Origin: a virus
Taxonomy: Duplodnaviria; Caudoviricetes
Length of the DNA stretch: 36,656 nt
Direction: 5' to 3' (one strand)
IMG/VR virus record: IMGVR_UViG_3300048606_000040
Location: 1 to 36,656 of that record
Shown: one piece after another, positions 3,417 through 25,388 of the stretch
Layout of the letters: every line of letters starts with the position of its first letter
How positions within the stretch are numbered: the first letter of the stretch is position 1
Program-made: the position numbers and the translations under genes
The notes under the pieces: model-generated
Database searches by the model: none
The model's input: the letters and a program-made list of their open reading frames with translations, nothing else
What the model was told of the DNA's origin: nothing

Positions 3417-4385
3417 ATGTGGAAGCTGTTCATGAGGCTGATGGAAAAGGCCGGCGAAGAAGGTGGCGGCGGGGGCGGCGATGCCGCGGCCGCAGCCGCT
3501 GCAGCCGCCGCCGCAGCAGCGAAAGGTGGCGGCGGGGAAGGTGGGATCCTCAAGGCGGGCGCCGCTGGTGCTGCTGGCGGTGTGGACGATCCCGCCGCCA
3601 AGGCCGCAGCGGCTGCCGCTGCTGCAGCCGCTGTGGCTGGTGGTAAGACCTACCACTGGGCCGAGAACGTGCCCGGGTCCGGCGAGACGCCGCCCTGGTT
3701 CAAGGGCGACAAGTACAAGACGGTCGCCGACCAGGCGCGCGCCGCGGTCGAGCTCGAGACCAAGCTCGGGCCGGCCGCCGAGCTCATCGGCGCCCCGAAA
3801 GACAAGGACGGCAAGCCCGCCCCGTACGCGCTCCCCGAGATCAAGGACGACAAGGGCAATAAGACCTGGGAGTGGGACGCCGAGGATCCGCGCATCAAGG
3901 CCTTCCAGACCGAGGCGGCGGCCATGGGCCTCTCGCAGAAGGCCTTCGATCGCATCGTCACCATGTACGCCGGCCAGGAGATCGAGGCCCAGGGCGCTGC
4001 CGAGGCGAGTCTCGCCGAGGCGCTGCAGAAGCTCGGCCCCAATGTCTCGGCGCGCGTGGCGGCGGTGCAGCAGTACGTCACGGCCCAGGTGGGTGCCGAA
4101 GGGTTTGCTGCTCTCGACAACGCACTCGGCACCTCGGTCGAGGCCTTCAAGGCCTTCGAGAAGCTGATCGCGCTGCAGGCGAATGACCCGCGCCTGGCCG
4201 GATCCGGCGGCAAGCCCGGGGTCGGTTTCACCAAAGCCGACATCCAGGCCGAGCAGTTCAAGCTCTACGCTGACGGGCCGCTCAAGGGTCAGAAGCTGTA
4301 CGACCACGACGCCGAGCACCGCAAGAAGGTGGACGCCATGTGGTCGCAGCTCTTCCCCGGGGAAGACGTCCAGAACGTGGGGTAG
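3417..4385 (+). CDS. Capsid assembly scaffolding protein
   Basis: Directly before the capsid gene; low-complexity Gly/Ala N-terminus; PPWFKGDKYKTVADQARA..ELETKLG and GLSQKAFD patterns. Confidence 0.8.
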   Translation: MWKLFMRLMEKAGEEGGGGGGDAAAAAAAAAAAAAKGGGGEGGILKAGAAGAAGGVDDPAAKAAAAAAAAAAVAGGKTYHWAENVPGSGETPPWFKGDKYKTVADQARAAVELETKLGPAAELIGAPKDKDGKPAPYALPEIKDDKGNKTWEWDAEDPRIKAFQTEAAAMGLSQKAFDRIVTMYAGQEIEAQGAAEASLAEALQKLGPNVSARVAAVQQYVTAQVGAEGFAALDNALGTSVEAFKAFEKLIALQANDPRLAGSGGKPGVGFTKADIQAEQFKLYADGPLKGQKLYDHDAEHRKKVDAMWSQLFPGEDVQNVG

Positions 4386-9038: not shown

Positions 9039-9518
9039 ATGGGCTGGGTAGCTTTAGTCGGTGCGGTGGTCCAGGCGGCGGCGCAGAAGTCGTCCTCCAA
9101 CGCCCAGCAGACGCAGCTGCTGCTCGAGAAGCGACAGGAGCAGGCCGCCGCCCAGGACCGCGAGGTCCAGCGCATGCGCCGGCTCAATGCCATTCTCGGA
9201 TCTCAGAATGCGGCGATCGCCGCCAGCGGTGTCGTCAACTCGGGCTCGATCGCGAACGTGAGCATCACCGACGCCAAGCGCGCCTCCGAGGACAGCCAGG
9301 TCGACCGGGTCAACACCTCGGCCCGAATCATCGCCATAGACACCAATCGCCGGGCGATCCGAAAGGCCGGCGACCTGCAGGCCGCCGGGACCATCCTCAG
9401 CGCCGCCGGCCGGTACTACCAGCGCGGCTCGGTGCCCACGGGTGGCGGCCGCGTCACCCCATCCCAGGCGACCGAGGCGGGCTCCGGGCTCTCCTCAAGC
9501 GCGGCCAGGTACGCCTGA
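9039..9518 (+). CDS. Internal virion (ejection) protein, gp14-like
   Basis: 159 aa, hydrophobic N-terminus, Q/A-rich helix, AASGV..SGS motif; position after the nozzle. Confidence 0.75.
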   Translation: MGWVALVGAVVQAAAQKSSSNAQQTQLLLEKRQEQAAAQDREVQRMRRLNAILGSQNAAIAASGVVNSGSIANVSITDAKRASEDSQVDRVNTSARIIAIDTNRRAIRKAGDLQAAGTILSAAGRYYQRGSVPTGGGRVTPSQATEAGSGLSSSAARYA

Positions 9519-11704
9519 TGGCGCTGCCCCGCTACGACCGCAGCACGCAGCTCGAGACCGGGATCTCCGCCGGCGCCGCGGGCGCGCCTGGGCAGGCGCT
9601 CGCCGCCGAGCTCGACCGCTTCGTCGAGCAGCGCAACCAGGAGCTCGACAAGCGCGCCGAGGAGGAAGGCTTCGCCGCCGGCCAGACCGCCGGCCAGGAA
9701 GGGGATCTCGGGCCGTCGAACCCGACCACGATCTCCGGCCGTGCCTTCCAGCAGGGCGCGATCGTCGCGCACCAGGCGGCGGTGCAGACCGACATCCGCG
9801 ACCAGGTCGGCCGCTACGCGATCGAGTCGCCCGACGATCCTGACGCCTTCGACGCCAAGGTCGCCGGCATGTCGGAGGGGCTGCTCAAGGAAGCAGATCC
9901 GCGCATGCGCTCGTTCATCCAGGAGCGGGTCGCCGACTACGCCGGCCGGGCGAAGCTGCAGGTGCTCGACGCCCAGCAGGCAAAGTTTCGCAAGTCCGCC
10001 GCCGACGATCTGCAGGTCGGCGCGAAGGGTCTGGTCGACGATGCGACCACGGCCGCCTTCGAGGGCGACACCACCTACACCGAGGCCCGGCGCCAGGAGT
10101 TCACGCGGCTGCTGACGGGCGGGGTCGCCGGCGGCCTCATCGATCAGGCCCAGGCGACCGAGCAGCTGCAGAACTTCGAGCGCGCCATCACGAGCCAGGA
10201 GGTGGTCGGCAACTTCGACCGCGTCCTTCGTAAGCAGGGCTCCGAGGCGGCCACCAAGGCGATCCGCTCATGGCAGGACCAGAAGCCCTCCGAGCTCGGC
10301 CTCACCGTCGACGATCACGAGGCGGTCACCCGCCAGCTGATCACGATGAAGAACCGCTTCGACTCGCTGGCGGCCGACGACCACGCGAAGAGCAACGCGG
10401 CGATCGCGGCCGAGAGCCTGCAGCGCTCCACCCGGGTCAAGGATGCGATCTCGGTCATGGCCTCCGGCTTCCCGCCCGACAAGGCGGTGGTCGACCAGGC
10501 GACCGCGGACCTGCGCTGGCTGCGCTCGAGCGGGGTGGTGAACCCGACCGACGCGGTCCAGGCCGCCGAGCTCGCCCACGACTTCGACACGGCCGCGGCG
10601 ATCCAGAACCAGGTGCACACCTTCCGGCGCATGACGACGCCCCAGCGCACCCAGCAACTGGCGCAGCTGCGCGGCGCCCTCACGCGCGACGGGGCGAGCG
10701 CCGAGCAGGTGCAGCTCTACAAGGCGCTCGAGCTCACCAACACCGAGGTCACGGCCGCGGTGCAGAAGGACGCGCGCGGCTATCTCGCCGGCGAGGGCCT
10801 GATCCCGCAGGCACCGCTCGACTTCTCGAGCGGTGACGCGCTGACCAAGTCCCTGGGCGATCGCGCCGAGGGTGCGGATCTCGGCCAGCAGCTGGTGGGC
10901 GAGCCGATCAGCCGGCTCACCGCCGCCGAGACCGACCAGTTCGCCACGCTCTACAAGAACGCCGAGATCGAGGAGCGGGTGGGCCTGCTCGGAATCCTGA
11001 CCGAGGGCGCGGGCGGCGAGGCTGACGCGACGCTCAAGCAGCTCGACAGCCAGGGCTACAAGGGCATGGCGCTCCTCGGGAACATGGTGCGCCAGGGCCA
11101 GGGATCGCTCGCCCGCGACGTCATGCTCGGGGACAAGGTGCGCGGATCCGAGAAGGGAATCACCCCGAAGCGCGATCTGTACCAGCCGGATCTGGACGCC
11201 GCGATCGGCTCGGCCATGATCGACTGGCCCGACCAGCGCTCGACCTACATCGACGCGGCGCTCTCAAAATACGCCGAGTTGAAGGCGCGCCAGGGCGACG
11301 GGACCGAAGAGTACAAGCCGAAGCTCTTCCAGCAGGCGCTCGCCGCTGTCATGCCGACCGCCGAGTTCAACGGCCGCCGGGTGCTGATCCCGCCGCGCGC
11401 CTCCGAGGACAGCTTCAACGACTGGACCCGTGGGTTCACCGACTCCGACTTCGTCGACGTAGCCGGCCGCCCCGAGGCTGGTATGGCGGCGCTCGTGCGC
11501 CGGCGCGGCCGCCTGGTCGAGTTGGGCGAGGGCCGCTACGGTGTCGCACTCCCGAGCGCCTCAGACGGACGGGAGAAGTATCTGCTCAACGGCGCCGGCC
11601 AGCCCTTCATGCTCGAGTACGGCGCACCTGGCCCGCGCTCCGAATCGCACCGCGGATCCGGCAAGCCCGCTGCGAGCACCAGCACCGAGTACGTTCCGCT
11701 CTAA
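9518..11704 (+). CDS. Internal virion (ejection) protein, gp15-like
   Basis: 728 aa, helical and Ala-rich, starts MALPRY; synteny. Confidence 0.7.
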   Translation: MALPRYDRSTQLETGISAGAAGAPGQALAAELDRFVEQRNQELDKRAEEEGFAAGQTAGQEGDLGPSNPTTISGRAFQQGAIVAHQAAVQTDIRDQVGRYAIESPDDPDAFDAKVAGMSEGLLKEADPRMRSFIQERVADYAGRAKLQVLDAQQAKFRKSAADDLQVGAKGLVDDATTAAFEGDTTYTEARRQEFTRLLTGGVAGGLIDQAQATEQLQNFERAITSQEVVGNFDRVLRKQGSEAATKAIRSWQDQKPSELGLTVDDHEAVTRQLITMKNRFDSLAADDHAKSNAAIAAESLQRSTRVKDAISVMASGFPPDKAVVDQATADLRWLRSSGVVNPTDAVQAAELAHDFDTAAAIQNQVHTFRRMTTPQRTQQLAQLRGALTRDGASAEQVQLYKALELTNTEVTAAVQKDARGYLAGEGLIPQAPLDFSSGDALTKSLGDRAEGADLGQQLVGEPISRLTAAETDQFATLYKNAEIEERVGLLGILTEGAGGEADATLKQLDSQGYKGMALLGNMVRQGQGSLARDVMLGDKVRGSEKGITPKRDLYQPDLDAAIGSAMIDWPDQRSTYIDAALSKYAELKARQGDGTEEYKPKLFQQALAAVMPTAEFNGRRVLIPPRASEDSFNDWTRGFTDSDFVDVAGRPEAGMAALVRRRGRLVELGEGRYGVALPSASDGREKYLLNGAGQPFMLEYGAPGPRSESHRGSGKPAASTSTEYVPL

Positions 11705-11713
11705 GAGGCCGCC

Positions 11714-14700
11714 ATGGCTGACCCGGTTCTCGACGCCTACACCTCCCGCGCCCGCATGGAGGGCTTCACCGAGCACGACGCCCCGAGTGTCTGGTCGGAC
11801 ACGGTCGCGGCCGCCTTCTCCCTGACCCGGCGCGAGGAGATCTCGAGCAGCGCCTCCTCAGCCTGGGAGAAGAAGGTCGAGGAGCGCGCCAAGAAGATCG
11901 GCGAGTTGGGCGGCGATGCGACGCTCGCCAAGACTTACGCCATGGTCCCGCTGACCCAGGTGCAGTACTACCGCAAGTTCGAGAAGGAGAACGGCCGCGC
12001 GGCGCTGCTCGCGGATCCCATGTTCAAGCTCGATTTTGGCGACAGCAAGAACTTCCTCCAGTTCGGCAGCTACGAGCAGGCCCGCGACTTCGAGCAGCGC
12101 TACCCGGGCGAGGTGCTGGACGATGAGGCGCTGCTCGCCCAGATGCGCGCGGAGTTCGCGGTCGAGCGCCGGCGCGACCAGGACGTGATCGATCGAGGCG
12201 GCGGCGGCGCTGCGTTCCTGGGCCAGGCGGGCGGCACGCTCACCGATCCGCTGGTGCTGGCGACGGCGCCCTTCGGTCTCGCGACCACGCCCGCGAAGAC
12301 TGCACTCGGCACGATCGGCAAGACGGCGCTCACCGAAGGCGCGGTTGCCATGGCCACCGAGATCCCGGTGCAGGCGCAGATCGCAATCTTCAAGCGCGAC
12401 ATCGAGAGCCCGTGGACGTTCGCCGACTCCGCGGTCAACGTGCTCGCGGCGGGCGCCGGCGGCGCCGTGTTCGGCGGCACGATCGCGGGCGGTGCCATCG
12501 GATACAAGAAGGCGCTCGCGAAGTTCCGCGAGTTGAAGGCCGCGGGCAAGGCCACGCGCACCGCCGAGACCGACGCGGCCGAGTCCGCGCTCGAGGAGGC
12601 GATCGCGACCCAAGAGGCGAACCCGCTGCCGAAGGACGGCGGCCTCGAGGAGTTCACCGCCGACATCCATGGCGATGCGCTCGAGCGGGCGAGCGCCCAG
12701 GCTGAAGCCGGTGCGCCGGTCGACGTGGCGGAAGTGGTCACAGGGTTCGAGGCGCCGGATCCAGTGGGCTCGATCGTCACGCGCGCCGCGGATCCGGCGC
12801 AGCTCGTCGACGTCGATCCGCTGCAGCTGCACGTGGACGCGAAGACCTTCCAGTTCAAAGGAGGTGGCGATGCCGAAGGGGTTACGGGTGCACTCAGAGA
12901 CGTCGAACGTTTCGATCGCCGCCTGGCTGGCGTTGCGCTTATCTGGGAGCGCGCTGACGGTCGTCAGTTCATTGCCGATGGGCACCAGCGCGTGGGTCTG
13001 GCCCGCCGCGCGATCGCCGCCGGCCAGGATCCCGCCGAGGTGCGGCTCAACGGCTTCGTCCTTCGCGAGGCTGATGGAGTCACCGCGGTCGACGCGCGGC
13101 GCATGGCCGCGATCAAGAACATGGCGGAAGGGTCCGGATCCGCGCTCGATGCGGCGAAGATCCTAAGAGACGTCGGGCCCGCGGGTGAGGCGATGCTGCC
13201 GCCGCTCCCCCCTCGATCGGCGCTGGTACGCCAGGCCCGCGGGCTCGCCGCACTCGGTGACGAGGAGTTCCTCAAGGTCGTGAACGGCGTGGTCGATGAG
13301 CGCGCCGGCGCCCTGGTCGGGGCTGCCACCGAGGATCCGAAGCTGCAGAGCGCCATGATCGAGGTGCTGCGCCGGGCGAAGCCAGAGAACGAAGCCCAGG
13401 CGCGCAGCATCGTCGAGCAGGTGCGCACGCAGGGGATCGAGACCCGCACCACCACCGATCTTTTCGGCGAGCAGTCGTTCGCCGAGTCGCACTACCTCGA
13501 GCGCGCGCAGGTGCTCGACGCCGCGCTCAAGCTCGCCCGCGAGGACAAGCAGATCTTCGGCGGCCTGGTACGGAACGAGGACCGGATCGCCGGCGCCGGT
13601 TCCAACAGCCTCGACCGTGCTGCTAATCTCGCCCGCCAACAGGAGGCCGCCGATGCCGCGACGCAGATCACCATCCGGGCCAATGCCAAGGGCGCCCTCT
13701 CTGACGCCCTCAGCGATGCCGCCCGACGGGTCCGGGAAGGCGCCAAGCCAGGCACCGTCGCGAAGTCTTTTCTCGAGGCCGCTCGACGCGAGATCTTTCA
13801 AGGCGATCGAGGCCGGGGTGCGCCTGGCAAAGCTCGACCGCGCGGTAAATCAGCGGGCGCGTCTCGAGGAGTAGAGCCGCCGATCCGGCTGCAGTCGATC
13901 GAGCCAGTCGATCGCAAGCTCGTGAAGAAGACCTTCCGCGCTGGCCAGCACGGTCAGACGGTCGAGGATCTCTACAAGGTCGCCGAGCGTCACCAGAAGA
14001 AGCTGGTCGCCGCCATGCGCGAGCTCGCCGACGAGTTCGGTGACGACGTGAGCGTTGCCGATCCAGGCATCAAGGGCCGCGCCGGCACCGAGGAGAAGCT
14101 GCTCCGCAAGGGCTACCAGGACGCCGGCGAAGTGACCGACGTAATCCGCGCGGGCTTCATCACCCGGACCCCTGAGCAGGCCGCGGCGCTGATCGAGCGC
14201 ATGGCGCAGAAGTTCACGCTGCTCGATGACGGGATCAACGTGACCCCCATGGGCTACATCGACCACGTCGCCCTGGTGCGCTTCCCCGATGGCCGCGTCG
14301 CCGAGCTGCAGGCCTGGTCAGATGCCATGGCCCAGGCGAAGTTCAAGGAAGGGCACGTCCTGTACGAAGAAGCCCGCAAGCTCACCCCCGAGCAGCTGGC
14401 AACGCCTGAGGGCGCCGCGAAGCTCGAGGCGATCAACGAGGCGTCACGGGAGCTCTACGCGCGGGCGGTCGCCCAGGGGCCGCCCGAGTGGCGGCAGGTG
14501 GCCATGATGGCCTTCCCCGAAGACATGCGCGTCCGGGTTCAGGATGCGCTGGCGGGGAACGAGGCGGGCGCGGGAAGAGCGGGCAAGCCCGGGAACATCT
14601 CGAGCCAGGCGGCGCGCGACATCTCGAAGCCTGATTCCAGCACCTCGGCCGGGCTGCAACGCGACCAGGCGCCGGCCTCATCGGGTACGAAGAAGGCCTC

Positions 14701-15049
14701 GACGCCGCCCTCGAGCGAGGGCCGCGCCACCGCGGGACGCTCTTCCCAGTTGAAGAATCTCTCAGCCATTGATAGTCCTCCGAGGAGCATTATACGCGCG
14801 GTCGACGACCCCAAGAGTGCGCACCCGACAAAATCGCGCACCGGCACCGTCGAGGATGCCGACTACGACGCGGTTATGTCGCAATACCAGGATGCACTGG
14901 AAGATCGCGGCCAGCTGCTCACCTTGACCCAGGAGATCGACGGCGTGGTTACTGAGCGCCCGGTCTCGGGTGTCATCGACGAACTGGACACCGCCGAGGA
15001 GACCCTCGAACGGGTCCGGCTCTGCTCGCTGCCGCCGCGCGCGGCCTGA
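11714..15049 (+). CDS. Polyvalent internal virion protein: hydrophobic Gly-rich region, ParB/Srx-like domain, RelA/SpoT-like nucleotidyltransferase domain
   Basis: ParB-like FIADGHQR (about 12800-13150). RelA/SpoT-like IK..R...EK, TDVIRA, GYIDH, ELQ, GHVLYE (about 14050-14380). Lies within the ejection-protein cluster. Confidence 0.8.
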   Translation: MADPVLDAYTSRARMEGFTEHDAPSVWSDTVAAAFSLTRREEISSSASSAWEKKVEERAKKIGELGGDATLAKTYAMVPLTQVQYYRKFEKENGRAALLADPMFKLDFGDSKNFLQFGSYEQARDFEQRYPGEVLDDEALLAQMRAEFAVERRRDQDVIDRGGGGAAFLGQAGGTLTDPLVLATAPFGLATTPAKTALGTIGKTALTEGAVAMATEIPVQAQIAIFKRDIESPWTFADSAVNVLAAGAGGAVFGGTIAGGAIGYKKALAKFRELKAAGKATRTAETDAAESALEEAIATQEANPLPKDGGLEEFTADIHGDALERASAQAEAGAPVDVAEVVTGFEAPDPVGSIVTRAADPAQLVDVDPLQLHVDAKTFQFKGGGDAEGVTGALRDVERFDRRLAGVALIWERADGRQFIADGHQRVGLARRAIAAGQDPAEVRLNGFVLREADGVTAVDARRMAAIKNMAEGSGSALDAAKILRDVGPAGEAMLPPLPPRSALVRQARGLAALGDEEFLKVVNGVVDERAGALVGAATEDPKLQSAMIEVLRRAKPENEAQARSIVEQVRTQGIETRTTTDLFGEQSFAESHYLERAQVLDAALKLAREDKQIFGGLVRNEDRIAGAGSNSLDRAANLARQQEAADAATQITIRANAKGALSDALSDAARRVREGAKPGTVAKSFLEAARREIFQGDRGRGAPGKARPRGKSAGASRGVEPPIRLQSIEPVDRKLVKKTFRAGQHGQTVEDLYKVAERHQKKLVAAMRELADEFGDDVSVADPGIKGRAGTEEKLLRKGYQDAGEVTDVIRAGFITRTPEQAAALIERMAQKFTLLDDGINVTPMGYIDHVALVRFPDGRVAELQAWSDAMAQAKFKEGHVLYEEARKLTPEQLATPEGAAKLEAINEASRELYARAVAQGPPEWRQVAMMAFPEDMRVRVQDALAGNEAGAGRAGKPGNISSQAARDISKPDSSTSAGLQRDQAPASSGTKKASTPPSSEGRATAGRSSQLKNLSAIDSPPRSIIRAVDDPKSAHPTKSRTGTVEDADYDAVMSQYQDALEDRGQLLTLTQEIDGVVTERPVSGVIDELDTAEETLERVRLCSLPPRAA
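12870..13166 (+). CDS. Candidate nested +1-frame gene (98 aa) with a hydrophobic segment, inside the polyvalent gene
   Basis: AAGGAGGT at 12858-12865, ATG 12870; host frame uses rare codons here; the stop is formed by rare CTA AGA codons. Confidence 0.5.
   Translation: MPKGLRVHSETSNVSIAAWLALRLSGSALTVVSSLPMGTSAWVWPAARSPPARIPPRCGSTASSFARLMESPRSTRGAWPRSRTWRKGPDPRSMRRRS
13653..13874 (+). CDS. Candidate nested +1-frame gene (73 aa) inside the polyvalent gene
   Basis: AGGAGG at 13641-13646, ATG 13653; the last 25 codons have genome-typical usage while the host frame does not. Confidence 0.5.
   Translation: MPRRRSPSGPMPRAPSLTPSAMPPDGSGKAPSQAPSRSLFSRPLDARSFKAIEAGVRLAKLDRAVNQRARLEE
14539..14769 (-). 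CDS. Nested antisense gene (76 aa), candidate immunity/antitoxin for the RelA/SpoT-like domain
   Basis: Minus strand TATAAT-GCTCCTC-GGAGGA-6 nt-ATG; product MAERFFNWEERPAV...WLEMFP looks globular while the host frame is an S/A/T/P-rich shadow. Confidence 0.75.
   Translation of the reverse strand: MAERFFNWEERPAVARPSLEGGVEAFFVPDEAGAWSRCSPAEVLESGFEMSRAAWLEMFPGLPALPAPASFPASAS
14776..14800 (-). promoter_or_regulatory. Internal antisense promoter (-10 TATAAT) and RBS
   Basis: TATAAT at 14794-14789, GGAGGA at 14781-14776; shares GCGTATAAnnCTCCT with the early promoter near 28660; no clear -35. Confidence 0.65.
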
Positions 15050-15059
15050 AGGTAAACCC

Positions 15060-17519
15060 ATGGCTTTCCGTGATTGTGTCGAGGCGGCGGTCAAGGCGGG
15101 GAAGATCACCCGCGACCAGGCCGAGGATCTCTACAGCCGGCAAGGAGACGCGACCGAGCAGTTCCTGCTCGACGCCCAGCACTCCCCCGAATCGGCCGCC
15201 CGCATGGGCGTCGAGCTCTCCCTGGAACGTGCCAAGCAGCGGGTGAGGCTGCAGAAGTACCAGGCGGCGCTGCAGGCGATCCGTAACGCCGACAACGCGG
15301 GCAAGGTGCTCAACTACCAGGGCGGCGCCACGCGGGGCGTGCGGACCATTCTGACGCGCGACAGCCGCGGCCGCGCCACTTGGAACAACATCGAGGTCCA
15401 GGCGCGCTCGATCCTGGGGCAGGCGCACGCGACCATGGCGAAGGGCCTCTCGGAGCTGCGCACGCGCTGGCTCGGCTTCAGCCGCGACAAGGTGATGCTC
15501 AAGAACGCGGTGCGCGAGCTGTTCGCTGAAACGACTGGCGATGCCCGGGCGGGCGCCTTCGCGCGCGCCTTCGGCACGGCGGCCGAGAATCTGCGGCTGC
15601 GCTTCAATCGCGCCGGGGGGGCGATCCCACGCCTGAAGGACTGGGGCATGCCGCAGTCCCACGACTCGGTCCTGGTCGGCCGGGCCACAGAAGGCGAGTG
15701 GGTCGACTTCACCCTCGGGCACCTGGATCCCGAGCGCATGACCGACGTCACCACCGGCCAGCCCTTCACGCTGCCGGCGCTGCGCGCGACGCTGCAGCAG
15801 GTCTATCAGACGATCAAGACCAACGGCGTCGCCGACATGGTCCCGGGTGCCGGCGGCGCGGGGAAGAAGCTCGCGAACCGGCGCCAGGAGGCGCGCTTCC
15901 TGGTCTTCAAGGACGCCGACAGCTGGCTCGCCTACCAGGAGCGCTTCGGCTCGCCGAACCTTTTCGGGACGATGATGGATCACCTGCATGCCATGTCGAA
16001 GGACGTGGCGCTGCTCGAGGGGCTGGGCCCGAATCCGCAGGGCGGCTTCCGGTATCTGATGGATCTCGCCCGCAAGGCCGAGGACCGCCCGCTCGCCCGC
16101 CAGGCGAACGAGGCCGTCTTCCGCCTGGTCAACGGCACGAGCGACGCCAACCGCTCCCCCTTCGTGGCGAATCTCTTCGGCGCGATCCGCAACTGGAACG
16201 TCGCGAGCAAGCTCGGGGCGGCGAGCCTCTCGGCGATCTCTGACATGGGCTTCATCCGCCAGACCGCGCGCTGGAATGGCATGAGCTTCGCCCGGGTGTT
16301 CCGCCGCTATCTCGCCCAGCTGAACCCTGCCAATGAGGGCGACCGGATCCTGGCGACCCGGATGGGGATCACGGCGCTCTCCTGGTCGGAGGCGTACAGC
16401 AACATCGGGCGCTTCTCGGACGTGGGCGGCGGCGGCGCGGGCTTCGTCGGCCGGGCGGCTGACGTCGGCGCCAAGTTCGCGGAAGCCACGCTGCGCGCGT
16501 CTGGGCTCAACGCCATGACCGACGCCGGCAAGCGGGCCTTTGCGCTCGAGTGGGGCGCGAACCTGGCCGAGGCCTTCGGCCACGAGGAGCTCGAGCGCGT
16601 CCCCGGCCTCTTCGGTGATTCCCTGCGCCGGCGGATTTCGCAAGAAGACTGGAAGCTGCTGCGCACCACGCGCACGGTCGATCACGACGGCGCCAAGTTC
16701 TTCGCGGTCGACGAGCTCATGGACCGGGTGGATCTGCCGACCTCGCAGAAACAGAAACTGGCCGGCCTGGTGCAGGGGATCCTGAACGAGGAGCTCCTCT
16801 ACGCGGTCCCCGAGCCCGACGCCCTGGCGCGCGTGATCACGACCGGCGGCGGCCAGGCGCGCGGCACCATTGCAGGCGAAGTCTCCCGCAACATCCTGCA
16901 GTTCAAGAGCTTCCCGATCGCGGTGCTCTCGCTGCACGCCCAGCGCGCCATTACCGCGGCGCAGAACCGCGGCACCTGGGCCGGGGTGAACTACGCCGCC
17001 CAGGCGATCATCGCGACGACGACGCTCGGCTTCGTCGCCATGCAGGCGAAGCAGATCGCCAAGGGCAAGGATCCGCGCGACTTCGACGACCCGGCCGCCT
17101 GGGCCGCGGCCTTCGTCCAGGGCGGCGGCCTCGGCATCTACGGGGATTTTCTCTTTGCCGACGCCAACCGCTTCGGTCAGGGGCCGGTGTCGACCATGCT
17201 GGGCCCGACCGCCGGGCTCCTGGACGATGTCACCAAGCTCACCCTCGGGAACATCCAGGAGCTCGTGAAAGGCGAGGACACCCACCTGGCGTCTGACGTT
17301 GTAGGATTCGGCTCGCGCTACATGCCGGGCGGGAATCTTTGGTACTCCCGCCTGGTGCTCGAGCGCGAAGTGTTTGATCAGCTCGCCCTGGCCGCGGACC
17401 CGATCGGCGCTCGGAAACGGTTCCAGCGGGCGGAGAAGCGGGCAAGGGACGAGTCTTCCGGGTTCTGGTGGCGCCCGGGTCAACAGGCGCCAGATCGGGC
17501 GCCGGAGACCGCGGAATGA
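15060..17519 (+). CDS. Large internal virion (ejection) protein, gp16-like (819 aa)
   Basis: Start reassigned to ATG 15060 (MAFRDC). Motifs WGMPQSHD, QFKSFP, KGKDPR, QGGGLGIYGDFL, PGGNLWY and WWRPG. Confidence 0.82.
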   Translation: MAFRDCVEAAVKAGKITRDQAEDLYSRQGDATEQFLLDAQHSPESAARMGVELSLERAKQRVRLQKYQAALQAIRNADNAGKVLNYQGGATRGVRTILTRDSRGRATWNNIEVQARSILGQAHATMAKGLSELRTRWLGFSRDKVMLKNAVRELFAETTGDARAGAFARAFGTAAENLRLRFNRAGGAIPRLKDWGMPQSHDSVLVGRATEGEWVDFTLGHLDPERMTDVTTGQPFTLPALRATLQQVYQTIKTNGVADMVPGAGGAGKKLANRRQEARFLVFKDADSWLAYQERFGSPNLFGTMMDHLHAMSKDVALLEGLGPNPQGGFRYLMDLARKAEDRPLARQANEAVFRLVNGTSDANRSPFVANLFGAIRNWNVASKLGAASLSAISDMGFIRQTARWNGMSFARVFRRYLAQLNPANEGDRILATRMGITALSWSEAYSNIGRFSDVGGGGAGFVGRAADVGAKFAEATLRASGLNAMTDAGKRAFALEWGANLAEAFGHEELERVPGLFGDSLRRRISQEDWKLLRTTRTVDHDGAKFFAVDELMDRVDLPTSQKQKLAGLVQGILNEELLYAVPEPDALARVITTGGGQARGTIAGEVSRNILQFKSFPIAVLSLHAQRAITAAQNRGTWAGVNYAAQAIIATTTLGFVAMQAKQIAKGKDPRDFDDPAAWAAAFVQGGGLGIYGDFLFADANRFGQGPVSTMLGPTAGLLDDVTKLTLGNIQELVKGEDTHLASDVVGFGSRYMPGGNLWYSRLVLEREVFDQLALAADPIGARKRFQRAEKRARDESSGFWWRPGQQAPDRAPETAE

Positions 17520-24049: not shown

Positions 24050-24315
24050 GAGTGCCCCGCCCGCTCGGCCTCGGGCGCCGCCTCCTCGCCACCCATCACC
24101 GGGCGGATCCCGGTCACCGCCTCGATGAAGTCGGCGGTCACGTCCTTCGCGAGCTGCATGAACTGATGGCGGCGCGGCTCGTTCTCGTGCACCAGGCGCA
24201 TGTCGATGCGCGCGAGCTCCATCGGCGGCTCGCCCGGCATCGCGTAGTAGGCGACCCACCAGGCGCCCTCGTGGCGCATCGCTAACTTCCCGACCTGCAG
24301 GAGCGGGCGGTTCAC
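24046..24315 (-). CDS. Hypothetical protein (89 aa)
   Basis: GTG 24315 overlaps the ParB stop; typical codons. Confidence 0.7.
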   Translation of the reverse strand: MNRPLLQVGKLAMRHEGAWWVAYYAMPGEPPMELARIDMRLVHENEPRRHQFMQLAKDVTADFIEAVTGIRPVMGGEEAAPEAERAGHS

Positions 24316-25388
24316 TTGCGCACCGCCTTGGCCTTCTTCTTCGGTTTCGCCTTGGCGTCGTCCTTGTGGCTGGCGAGCAGCGCCACCTCGCCTGTCTTCA
24401 GCTGCACCAGGACCGGCTGGTAATCCTTGTCGAGCAGCTGCTTGACGCTCTTGCCCTGGTGGCTGGGCTGGTGATCGAGCCGCACGTAGCTGTCGGGGAC
24501 TTCGGCCTGGTTGCGCAGGATCTTCTGCCCACGATCCTTCGCCTCGGAAAGCATGCGCTCCCCGTGGGCCTTCTTCTTCGCGTTGAAGCAGACCAGGTCC
24601 AGGCAATGGCCCAGACCCTTCACCTGCTCGAAGAGGGCGCCCTGGGCGCCGCTGCGCTTGGGGCAGCCATGGCAGGCCCCGGCCTTGGGCACCAGGCCCG
24701 CCTCGGCGATCGGGAACGGCGCGCCCTTGAGCTCGGAGAGGAAGTGCTGCTCGGCGTGATCGCGCACGTCGGCGGCGGACATCGGGCCTTGCCAGTGATC
24801 GAGGTGATCGAGCACCTCCTCGAGGAGTTCGTCCTGGTGCTCATGGATCGGGAGCTTGGCGAGCTCGAGCGCCACGGTGAAGCCGAGCTTCCCGTCATAG
24901 AACGCCCGGCGCACCGCCTTCGACAGCGTCTTCAGGCGCAACCGGCGCAGCACGTAGGTCGGCGAGCGGCCGAACTTGGCGGCGATCTGCTCGGCGTTCA
25001 TACCGTGGCTGACCAGCGCCTCATAGCCTTCCGCCTCGGCGAGCTCGTGTAGCTCCTCGCGATCGAGGTTCTCGGTCAGCTGTACCTCGATCACTTGCTG
25101 ATCGTTCAGCTCGCGCACGCTGCAGGGCACCTCCGGCCACTCGGCCAGGCCCGCCGCCATGAAGCGCCGCTCACCGGCGACGATCTCGAACTGGGTGGCG
25201 GGGTTGCCCTTCTTGGCGGCCGGGCGCACCAGGATCGGGTTGACCATGCCGTTCGCATCGAGCGACTCGGCGAGCTCCTTGATCCGCGCCTTGTTGAAAT
25301 GGGCGCGGCGCTCGACCTGGCTCTCGGTCTCCGACAGCACCAGCAGCTTGCGCGGAATCAGCCGCGTCTCGAGCGCCGCGCTGCTCAT
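24312..25388 (-). CDS. parB: ParB/RepB/Spo0J-family protein
   Basis: NPILVRP, FEIVAGERRF, ENLDREEL, an HTH and a Cys-rich CHGCPKRS..CLD..CF module. Confidence 0.9.
   Translation of the reverse strand: MSSAALETRLIPRKLLVLSETESQVERRAHFNKARIKELAESLDANGMVNPILVRPAAKKGNPATQFEIVAGERRFMAAGLAEWPEVPCSVRELNDQQVIEVQLTENLDREELHELAEAEGYEALVSHGMNAEQIAAKFGRSPTYVLRRLRLKTLSKAVRRAFYDGKLGFTVALELAKLPIHEHQDELLEEVLDHLDHWQGPMSAADVRDHAEQHFLSELKGAPFPIAEAGLVPKAGACHGCPKRSGAQGALFEQVKGLGHCLDLVCFNAKKKAHGERMLSEAKDRGQKILRNQAEVPDSYVRLDHQPSHQGKSVKQLLDKDYQPVLVQLKTGEVALLASHKDDAKAKPKKKAKAVRK

Follow-up and report, generated by a model that had tools for sequence, protein, structure and literature searches.

Polyvalent proteins of phages carry toxin-like domains without described immunity genes, and how a phage tolerates such domains itself has been an open question. 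The window analyzed here, IMG/VR virus record IMGVR_UViG_3300048606_000040, is a complete record of 36,656 bases with terminal repeats, a guanine-plus-cytosine (GC) content of 68%, and 158 open reading frames (ORFs) of at least 80 amino acids (aa). It contains a 1111-aa gene of this kind, in which an original prediction made from the letters alone had seen three nested ORFs beside enzyme domains. We asked whether these nested ORFs are genes and what they might do for the protein that contains them. With a probability of roughly 0.7, we propose that an internal slot of this likely virion-delivered protein holds a swappable cassette, consisting of a likely (p)ppApp-making toxin domain and a backward-facing likely immunity gene, and the locus family thereby offers a testable answer to the question of self-tolerance. 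The features needed for the argument are listed by window position (nt, nucleotides; SD, Shine-Dalgarno ribosome-binding site; pLDDT, predicted local distance difference test score).

11714-15049, + strand: host gene of 1111 aa for a polyvalent protein, within the internal-virion (ejection) block of a podovirus-like phage
12770-13798, + strand: ParB/Srx-fold domain (invariant DGHQR) and helical domain, host aa about 353-695; model pLDDT 80.3
13886-14539, + strand: Tas1/Apk-like RelA/SpoT-type alarmone synthetase domain, host aa about 725-942
14769-14539, - strand: nested antisense gene of 76 aa, predicted to encode the synthetase's immunity protein
14777-14781, - strand: antisense ribosome-binding site GGAGG
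14789-14794, - strand: antisense -10 box TATAAT, 7 nt above the SD; predicted sigma-70-type promoter
14880-15049, + strand: conserved C-terminal host peptide, present whatever the cargo; left border approximate

The antisense ORF was evaluated in related loci, 162 with the ParB module and 137 with the synthetase (two overlapping sets; GC content 35-65% in the first 80 ParB-module loci). From 139 complete hosts, 68 non-redundant ones were surveyed for cargo, and the antisense family was present in 25 of the 26 hosts with a Tas1-type synthetase, in 0/2 with another RelA-like domain, in 0/26 with a zeta kinase, and in 0/14 without cargo; the survey profiles were built partly from the same loci, and the zeros carry the weight. 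The single Tas1-type host without the family (L055) has a broken host frame. When loci were fetched by synthetase motifs alone (n = 63), the partner was nested antisense in the same frame in 56, antisense past the host end in 4, without a match in 3, and on the sense strand in none; two of the three loci without a match have a similar convergent ORF by eye. The partner lay on the opposite strand in 59 of 59 loci, and the Tis1/IapK-style placement downstream in a toxin operon was not encountered among them. A frame test on 29 disjoint pairs put changes that were silent in the antisense frame alone at 48/961 and those silent in the host frame alone at 19/1017, a 2.7-fold difference. By these sequence comparisons, the antisense ORF is a conserved and cargo-specific gene, constrained more than the host frame. 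Because the conserved C-terminal peptide lies beyond it, the host frame must read through the antisense gene; the terminal L..C motif of this peptide was found in 61 of 68 relatives, covering all cargo classes.

Start signals accompany the gene across the family. An SD and a start codon were found in 50 of 59 family loci, a count that is no test since the search required an SD. Additionally, TAnnnT occurred 2-15 nt before the SD in 33 of 50 antisense loci, compared with 137 of 796 control windows (17%), and TTG was enriched 35-33 nt before the antisense SD.

The cargo facing this gene resembles a known toxin. A profile of the synthetase domain matched Tas1 (6ox6_A) among solved structures at E=6e-21, with the next matches at 9e-4 or weaker, and the catalytic residues K63, K71, K75, D85, R88, and E140 were invariant, while Pfam RelA_SpoT matched 1 of 23 members only (E 0.064). 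A search with the single synthetase sequence reached one distant locus only. These results suggest that the domain is a probable (p)ppApp maker and likely a toxin.

The antisense protein belongs to a family of 179 clusters, many of 64-87 aa, and 79 of 80 family matches had no Pfam match. Its model is a small beta-sheet with two helices (pLDDT 82.9) and a conserved Trp. Foldseek gave no clear match, and the Tis1 chain was absent among the 50 matches listed; the ESM Atlas yielded one weak lead (0.76), an unnamed viral cluster of 73 aa, and three antisense profiles searched against solved structures met no Tis1 chain at E up to 10. Known Tis1-like proteins share identity as low as 24%, according to PMC10083569. 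A complex model of the antisense protein with the synthetase scored 0.68, compared with 0.20 for the best of three controls, above a mark that was reached by 116 of 157 solved pairs and 2 of 215 mismatched pairs; contact agreement among runs was at least 96%, and partner pLDDT was at least 83. The 76-aa protein is thus predicted, on modelling, to bind the synthetase. Members of the family also occur as one or more domains in proteins of 100-600 aa (P0013, P0015, P0016, P0020, P0022, and others), which are possibly orphan or stacked immunity domains.

Phage proteins that end in the Tas1-type domain show another arrangement, in which the partner is convergent and lies outside or partly overlaps the host gene, and the host tail is an off-frame reading of the partner end. 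Examples, with the partner on the - strand and the host ending in the Tas1-type domain, are as follows.

L210, 3983-4216: convergent partner
L266, 4007-4201: convergent partner
L280, 3998-4231: convergent partner
L302, 3902-4081: convergent partner
L219, 4033-4254: convergent partner

Since these short synthetase-ending proteins have a convergent partner, a convergent two-gene cassette is suggested as the ancestor. The low-GC relatives L161 and L163 carry a different RelA-like cargo in the C-terminal part of the host protein, with neither linker nor antisense partner. A second ParB-like domain (DGNST motif) stands ahead of the synthetase in six hosts (L047, L065, L066, L071, L128, and L145).

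The relatives share the N-terminal part, the ParB module, and the C-terminal peptide, and the slot between the latter two varies, being filled by a Tas1-type synthetase or a zeta-toxin-family kinase, or left empty. In the slot, the off-frame host translation of the partner gene resembles a low-complexity linker. A single polypeptide can carry at least two conflict domains, in an architecture that varies among relatives, as polyvalent proteins do. Hosts with a zeta kinase have a partner family of their own, a +1 nested ORF found in 23 of 26 such hosts and in 0/42 of the remaining ones; of the other three, two have another +1 ORF with TATAAT and an SD, and one is broken. Examples of both subtypes are listed below.

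L006, 5934-6131, + strand: zeta-kinase nested ORF, +1 frame, about 60-67 aa, starting inside the last kinase strand
L032, 5904-6104, + strand: same type
L056, 5928-6113, + strand: same type
L029, 5868-6026, + strand: second zeta-kinase subtype, different +1 nested ORF with perfect TATAAT and SD upstream
L031, 6009-6179, + strand: same second subtype

The first type of +1 ORF is a candidate antitoxin of a new family. On a quick tree of the ParB domain, the RelA label required at least 12 forced changes (starred branches), and the cargoes of two hosts differ although their ParB domains are identical; therefore, the cargo is not inherited with the ParB module. At the level of the compared loci, this shows that cargo and partner are exchanged together as cassettes.

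The second nested ORF, on the host strand, follows a different rule.

13653-13874, + strand: ORF2, +1 frame, 73 aa; variable basic N-half and conserved C-terminal helix-like motif
13641-13646, + strand: ORF2 ribosome-binding site AGGAGG; anti-SD pairing stronger than shuffles in 51/53 relatives

Stop and frame tests were carried out on 62 non-redundant sequences (150 of 163 kept, with 13 partial ones dropped, followed by thinning at 90% identity). The +1 frame had 8 stops over host aa 653-712 compared with 138 expected, and the bin before the ATG was normal (64 vs 72). An ATG was present at the aligned site in 53 of 62 sequences, where the host residues would predict 35; in the remaining nine the start lies elsewhere, and among these L165 is not alike. 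Sixty-two open codons would be expected in 5.6 of those 53, and the frame is also open in relatives with GC content at third codon positions (GC3) below 0.3. In its 3' half, the ORF shows a phase switch (21 disjoint pairs): host codon positions 1/2/3 differ at 0.23/0.11/0.17, compared with about 0.17/0.10/0.45 elsewhere, and identity in the +1 frame (0.77) exceeds host identity (0.71). By this comparative evidence, ORF2 is a conserved nested gene whose frame is constrained beyond the demands of the host frame. A +1 frameshift at TTT C (about host aa 686) was considered as the origin of ORF2 and rejected, as the depletion of stops sets in at the ATG, 40 codons before that site, and the SD shows enrichment.

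The family C-terminal consensus of ORF2 is LSDxQLxxAISxGxxLAxLDALSMxxRK. Some members, such as L014 and L080, restart downstream with a new SD, and therefore the C-terminal 35 residues are its likely working part. ORF2 was found in 67 of 68 hosts regardless of cargo, including 14 of 14 without cargo, and therefore belongs to the ParB module. The model of that module (aa 353-695) had ParB and Noc as its best Foldseek matches (E 9.5e-4, prob 1.00); Pfam matched none of 40 members, and placement in the DdrB-like family in particular is tentative. By analogy with the antisense gene, ORF2 could be an inhibitor of the ParB module, a tentative assignment that we hold at somewhat less than even odds. 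ORF2 is absent in P-SCSP1g, and the ESM Atlas gave no usable match for it.

ORF1 overlies the ParB-fold domain itself and behaves differently from the other two.

12870-13166, + strand: ORF1, +1 frame, 98 aa, ATG at 12870; its SD at 12858-12866, AAGGAGGTG, is the longest anti-SD match in the window

In each of 56 distinct relatives (56 of 56), L001 with its 68% identity among them, a stop closes the frame within 43 codons, and over host aa 393-472 the +1 frame held 316 stops against 292 expected (62 sequences), with no depletion. Its ATG overlies the invariant FQFKxGGD motif, which by itself gives an ATG in 40 of 62, and no SD enrichment was seen at its start across the family (29/62); the exact SD pattern was found in 0 IMG/VR contigs. 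In two contigs with about 87% likeness, the ATG is kept and the frame stays open over 12870-13045, and the deeper one keeps the stop position. Of the differences in these two contigs, 22/23 and 18/22 listed (read by hand) hit the second codon position of ORF1, with 4/27 and 8/30 differences near the ends unlisted and the SD region outside the listed part. Because nearly all these differences hit that position, the ORF1 protein is free to drift, and the changes include charge or proline substitutions in its hydrophobic stretch. As judged from these sequences, ORF1 is probably a start signal without a selected protein rather than a conserved companion gene, and it may be a clade-restricted start site. 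Low GC3 at window positions 12840-12960 persists in a close relative in which different positions changed, with changes toward A/T and toward G/C about equal; this may reflect a constraint other than coding, for example weak RNA structure downstream of the strong SD.

The original prediction therefore fared unevenly. Three nested ORFs with start signals do exist, ORF1 with its SD, ORF2 with AGGAGG, and the antisense ORF with GGAGG and TATAAT, and the proposed GC3 dips are real (0.58 in the 5' part of ORF1 and 0.44 in the 3' part of ORF2, against 0.84). Its order of a ParB-fold domain followed by a RelA/SpoT-type domain is correct, except that ORF2 reaches beyond the linker, since its start at host aa 647 falls about 48 codons within the predicted helical domain. 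The claim of up to four coding layers did not survive, as the nested ORFs do not overlap one another, no base is in more than two layers, and ORF1 is not conserved; most likely, the gene holds three coding frames in series, namely host, ORF2, and antisense. The cluster was said to be unique among the structural genes, and 0 of the 8 others scanned had one, but its excess over codon shuffles is borderline: for nested ORFs that start with ATG, reach 60 aa or more, and have a 5-nt SD match, the count was 3 against 0.92 (P=0.054), and with a 4-nt match the enrichment was gone (3 vs 2.2, P=0.38). The scan of relatives for alternate-frame ORFs near cargo that had been proposed as a check gave nested ORFs that are cargo-specific and under selection in their own frame. 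The broader idea that apparently disordered linkers are genes for companion proteins thus gains from ORF2 and the antisense ORF, and ORF1 fails the comparative tests; a role as immunity factor is supported for the antisense ORF only and extends to ORF2 by analogy.

How might such a cassette work? Tas1 and Apk2 have small binding immunity proteins, according to the parts of PMC10083569, PMC11782079, and PMC12226406 that deal with them. In the phage, a sigma-70-type promoter of its own would transcribe the antisense gene, uncoupled from the late operon, and the 76-aa product would bind and block the synthetase, as Tis1 and IapK, which occlude the acceptor site, do for Tas1 and Apk2. The producing cell would be protected during accumulation of the virion protein, and the few injected synthetase copies would be switched off once the incoming genome is expressed. 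Several observations weigh against a toxin-immunity cassette of this kind. The -35 region of the window's own antisense promoter is poor, and a scan of 11500-15300 for sigma-70 consensus and terminators found nothing. Two RelA-like hosts (L161 and L163) and one synthetase locus (L211) have no antisense partner. The host frame over the antisense gene is partly constrained (rate 0.05 vs 0.12 for doubly silent changes), and therefore the linker is not wholly neutral. The activity and toxicity of the synthetase are deduced from homology; the pass of the complex model, for which the analyst's own alignments were used, possibly reflects memory of the solved Tas1-Tis1 complex; and the likeness of the antisense model to Tis1 (6ox6_B) is weak, if full-length (Z 3.2, root-mean-square deviation 3.5 A, 58 aligned, rank 6 of 48,161, tied with unrelated chains). 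For ORF2, no promoter is evident, and in the cultured Ruegeria phage 45A6 and DvV SI2, which have close ParB domains, the gene is unannotated and is shortened or degraded.

The strongest competitor keeps the nested genes as real and has their products act as chaperones, help packaging or ejection, or regulate the activity of signalling domains that are not toxic. The conservation results and the predicted binding would suit any dedicated partner, the Tis1 likeness is weak as noted, and the presence of ORF2 in all cargo-less hosts with no clear promoter would suit co-expression with virion genes. Nevertheless, a predicted opposite-strand promoter of constitutive type would uncouple the antisense gene from late expression, unlike the gene of a chaperone. 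Moreover, Tas1, to which the cargo comes closest among solved structures, kills bacteria and has a small immunity protein that binds it, the alternative cargo is a kinase of the zeta toxin family, and a convergent partner is still present next to synthetases at the end of short proteins with a different architecture; we consider this competitor unlikely. Less likely again, and compatible with a toxin-immunity cassette, is that ORF1 too is a translated companion, as a young clade-restricted overprint and perhaps a membrane peptide. Its 9-nt SD with 98 open codons was unseen in 1000 shuffles (threshold set post hoc), and the GC3 dip (gene-wide P about 0.02), weak local folding at the start, hydrophobic stretch (Kyte-Doolittle 1.61), and the frame kept in the two close contigs speak for it; against it stand the closed frames, undepleted stops, and unenriched SD of the family, the motif that explains the ATG, the protein-altering differences in close relatives, and the lack of the SD pattern in IMG/VR contigs.

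An action of the antisense unit mainly as RNA, by antisense control or transcriptional interference on the late operon with the peptide secondary, seems very improbable. A conserved promoter facing the late operon would be expected to give convergent transcription, but the protein-level constraint in the antisense frame, the conserved Trp and fold, the stand-alone and fused homologues, and the predicted binding all point to a protein. Finally, all nested ORFs could be by-products of high GC and host amino-acid content, as a window with this GC content and so many long ORFs, an enrichment that is borderline within the window, and an antisense frame whose wobble positions coincide with those of the host and which most easily stays open, would allow. 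This explains ORF1 well, but ORF2 stays open at low GC3 and is open far more often than expected, and the antisense family tracks cargo and is the more constrained frame; for these two the explanation is refuted, and as an account of all three it is scarcely credible.

Beyond the toxin-immunity cassette itself, a poison-antidote scheme is conceivable and in our view doubtful. The virion would inject the toxin with the DNA, and the antidote would be made only if the genome survives and the hidden constitutive promoter fires, so that hosts destroying the DNA, or rival phages with another cassette, would be poisoned. If this were true, the linker beside each enzyme domain of polyvalent ejection proteins would conceal a cognate inhibitor, and by this rule inhibitors of uncharacterised domains, such as the ParB module here, could be deduced from the sequence next to them.

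Small genes wholly inside another gene in a different frame are familiar from lambda Rz/Rz1 and phiX174 E in D, which are fixed lysis genes. Unlike these, the nested gene here is the likely antidote to a domain of its containing gene, and the two are exchanged together. Among solved structures, the cargo is closest to Tas1 (Apk1) of Pseudomonas aeruginosa PA14, which has the 76-residue enzyme-binding partner Tis1 (PDB 6OX6; relevant parts of PMC11782079 and PMC10083569). Tas1 is C-terminal on a type VI secretion system (T6SS) PAAR protein, whereas the domain here is internal in a phage virion gene and its partner lies inside the same gene on the opposite strand; no sequence match between Tis1 and the antisense protein was found, and membership in the Tis1 family is tentative. 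In the MuF-Apk2 polymorphic toxins of phages, with IapK/BcTis1 and Aph1, a (p)ppApp synthetase is likewise joined to a virion-associated phage protein and has its own small immunity protein that binds it; according to PMC10083569 and PMC12226406, the toxin there is C-terminal, and iapK and aph1 come after it as separate operon genes. In the present locus, the synthetase rides on a podoviral ejection-block protein that also has a ParB module; the cassette sits within the gene, and the likely immunity gene is nested on the opposite strand with a predicted promoter of its own. Phage polyvalent proteins (Iyer et al. 2017, PMC5512222) also combine several domains, among them DdrB-like ParB, RelA/SpoT, and zeta-like kinase domains, and shuffle them rapidly, and related loci of the present family carry LPD23, LPD38, and ART-PolyVal. 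The main text of that paper, supplements aside, does not contain the terms 'overlap', 'immunity protein', 'cognate', 'opposite strand', or 'self-intoxication', and nested partner genes are not described in it. No description of nested or antisense immunity genes in polyvalent or ejection genes was found in searches of PMC open-access papers and bioRxiv; bioRxiv 10.1101/2023.03.28.534661 had no bearing on the question, and PMC12691689 supplied background.

Immunity genes placed inside the gene escape standard annotation, and Pfam and NCBIfam gave no name to the host protein or to any of the three nested proteins. The loci yield dozens of matched pairs of toxin and partner, for the Tas1-type synthetase, the zeta-type kinase, and the ParB module, together with a new family of small proteins that numbers at least 179 clusters and is named in neither Pfam nor NCBIfam. 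They are also a natural example in which the same DNA encodes a toxin domain together with its likely antidote, and they suggest caution, as cloning such domains without the adjoining linker loses the inhibitor.

The structural genes of the window are podovirus-like: portal, scaffold, capsid, tail tubes, and internal virion protein are followed by the 728-, 1111-, and 819-aa genes and a tail fibre. The host gene block thus comes after the portal, capsid, and tail-tube genes; its neighbours are an internal virion protein (phrog_418, at 9039) and the 728-aa gene, and on the other side a virion structural protein (phrog_684, at 15061). From this position, the host protein is likely packaged in the virion and delivered on infection. 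A GC3 dip in the scaffold gene (window 3417-3650) corresponds to long Ala/Gly repeats at the gene start, with no nested-gene signal. Additionally, a ParB-like partition gene lies at window 24312-25388 on the - strand (PHROG E 3e-31), and no integrase-family match was found among the 40 ORFs scanned; this may indicate that the phage can be carried like a plasmid, a state that would fit a constitutive promoter for the immunity gene.

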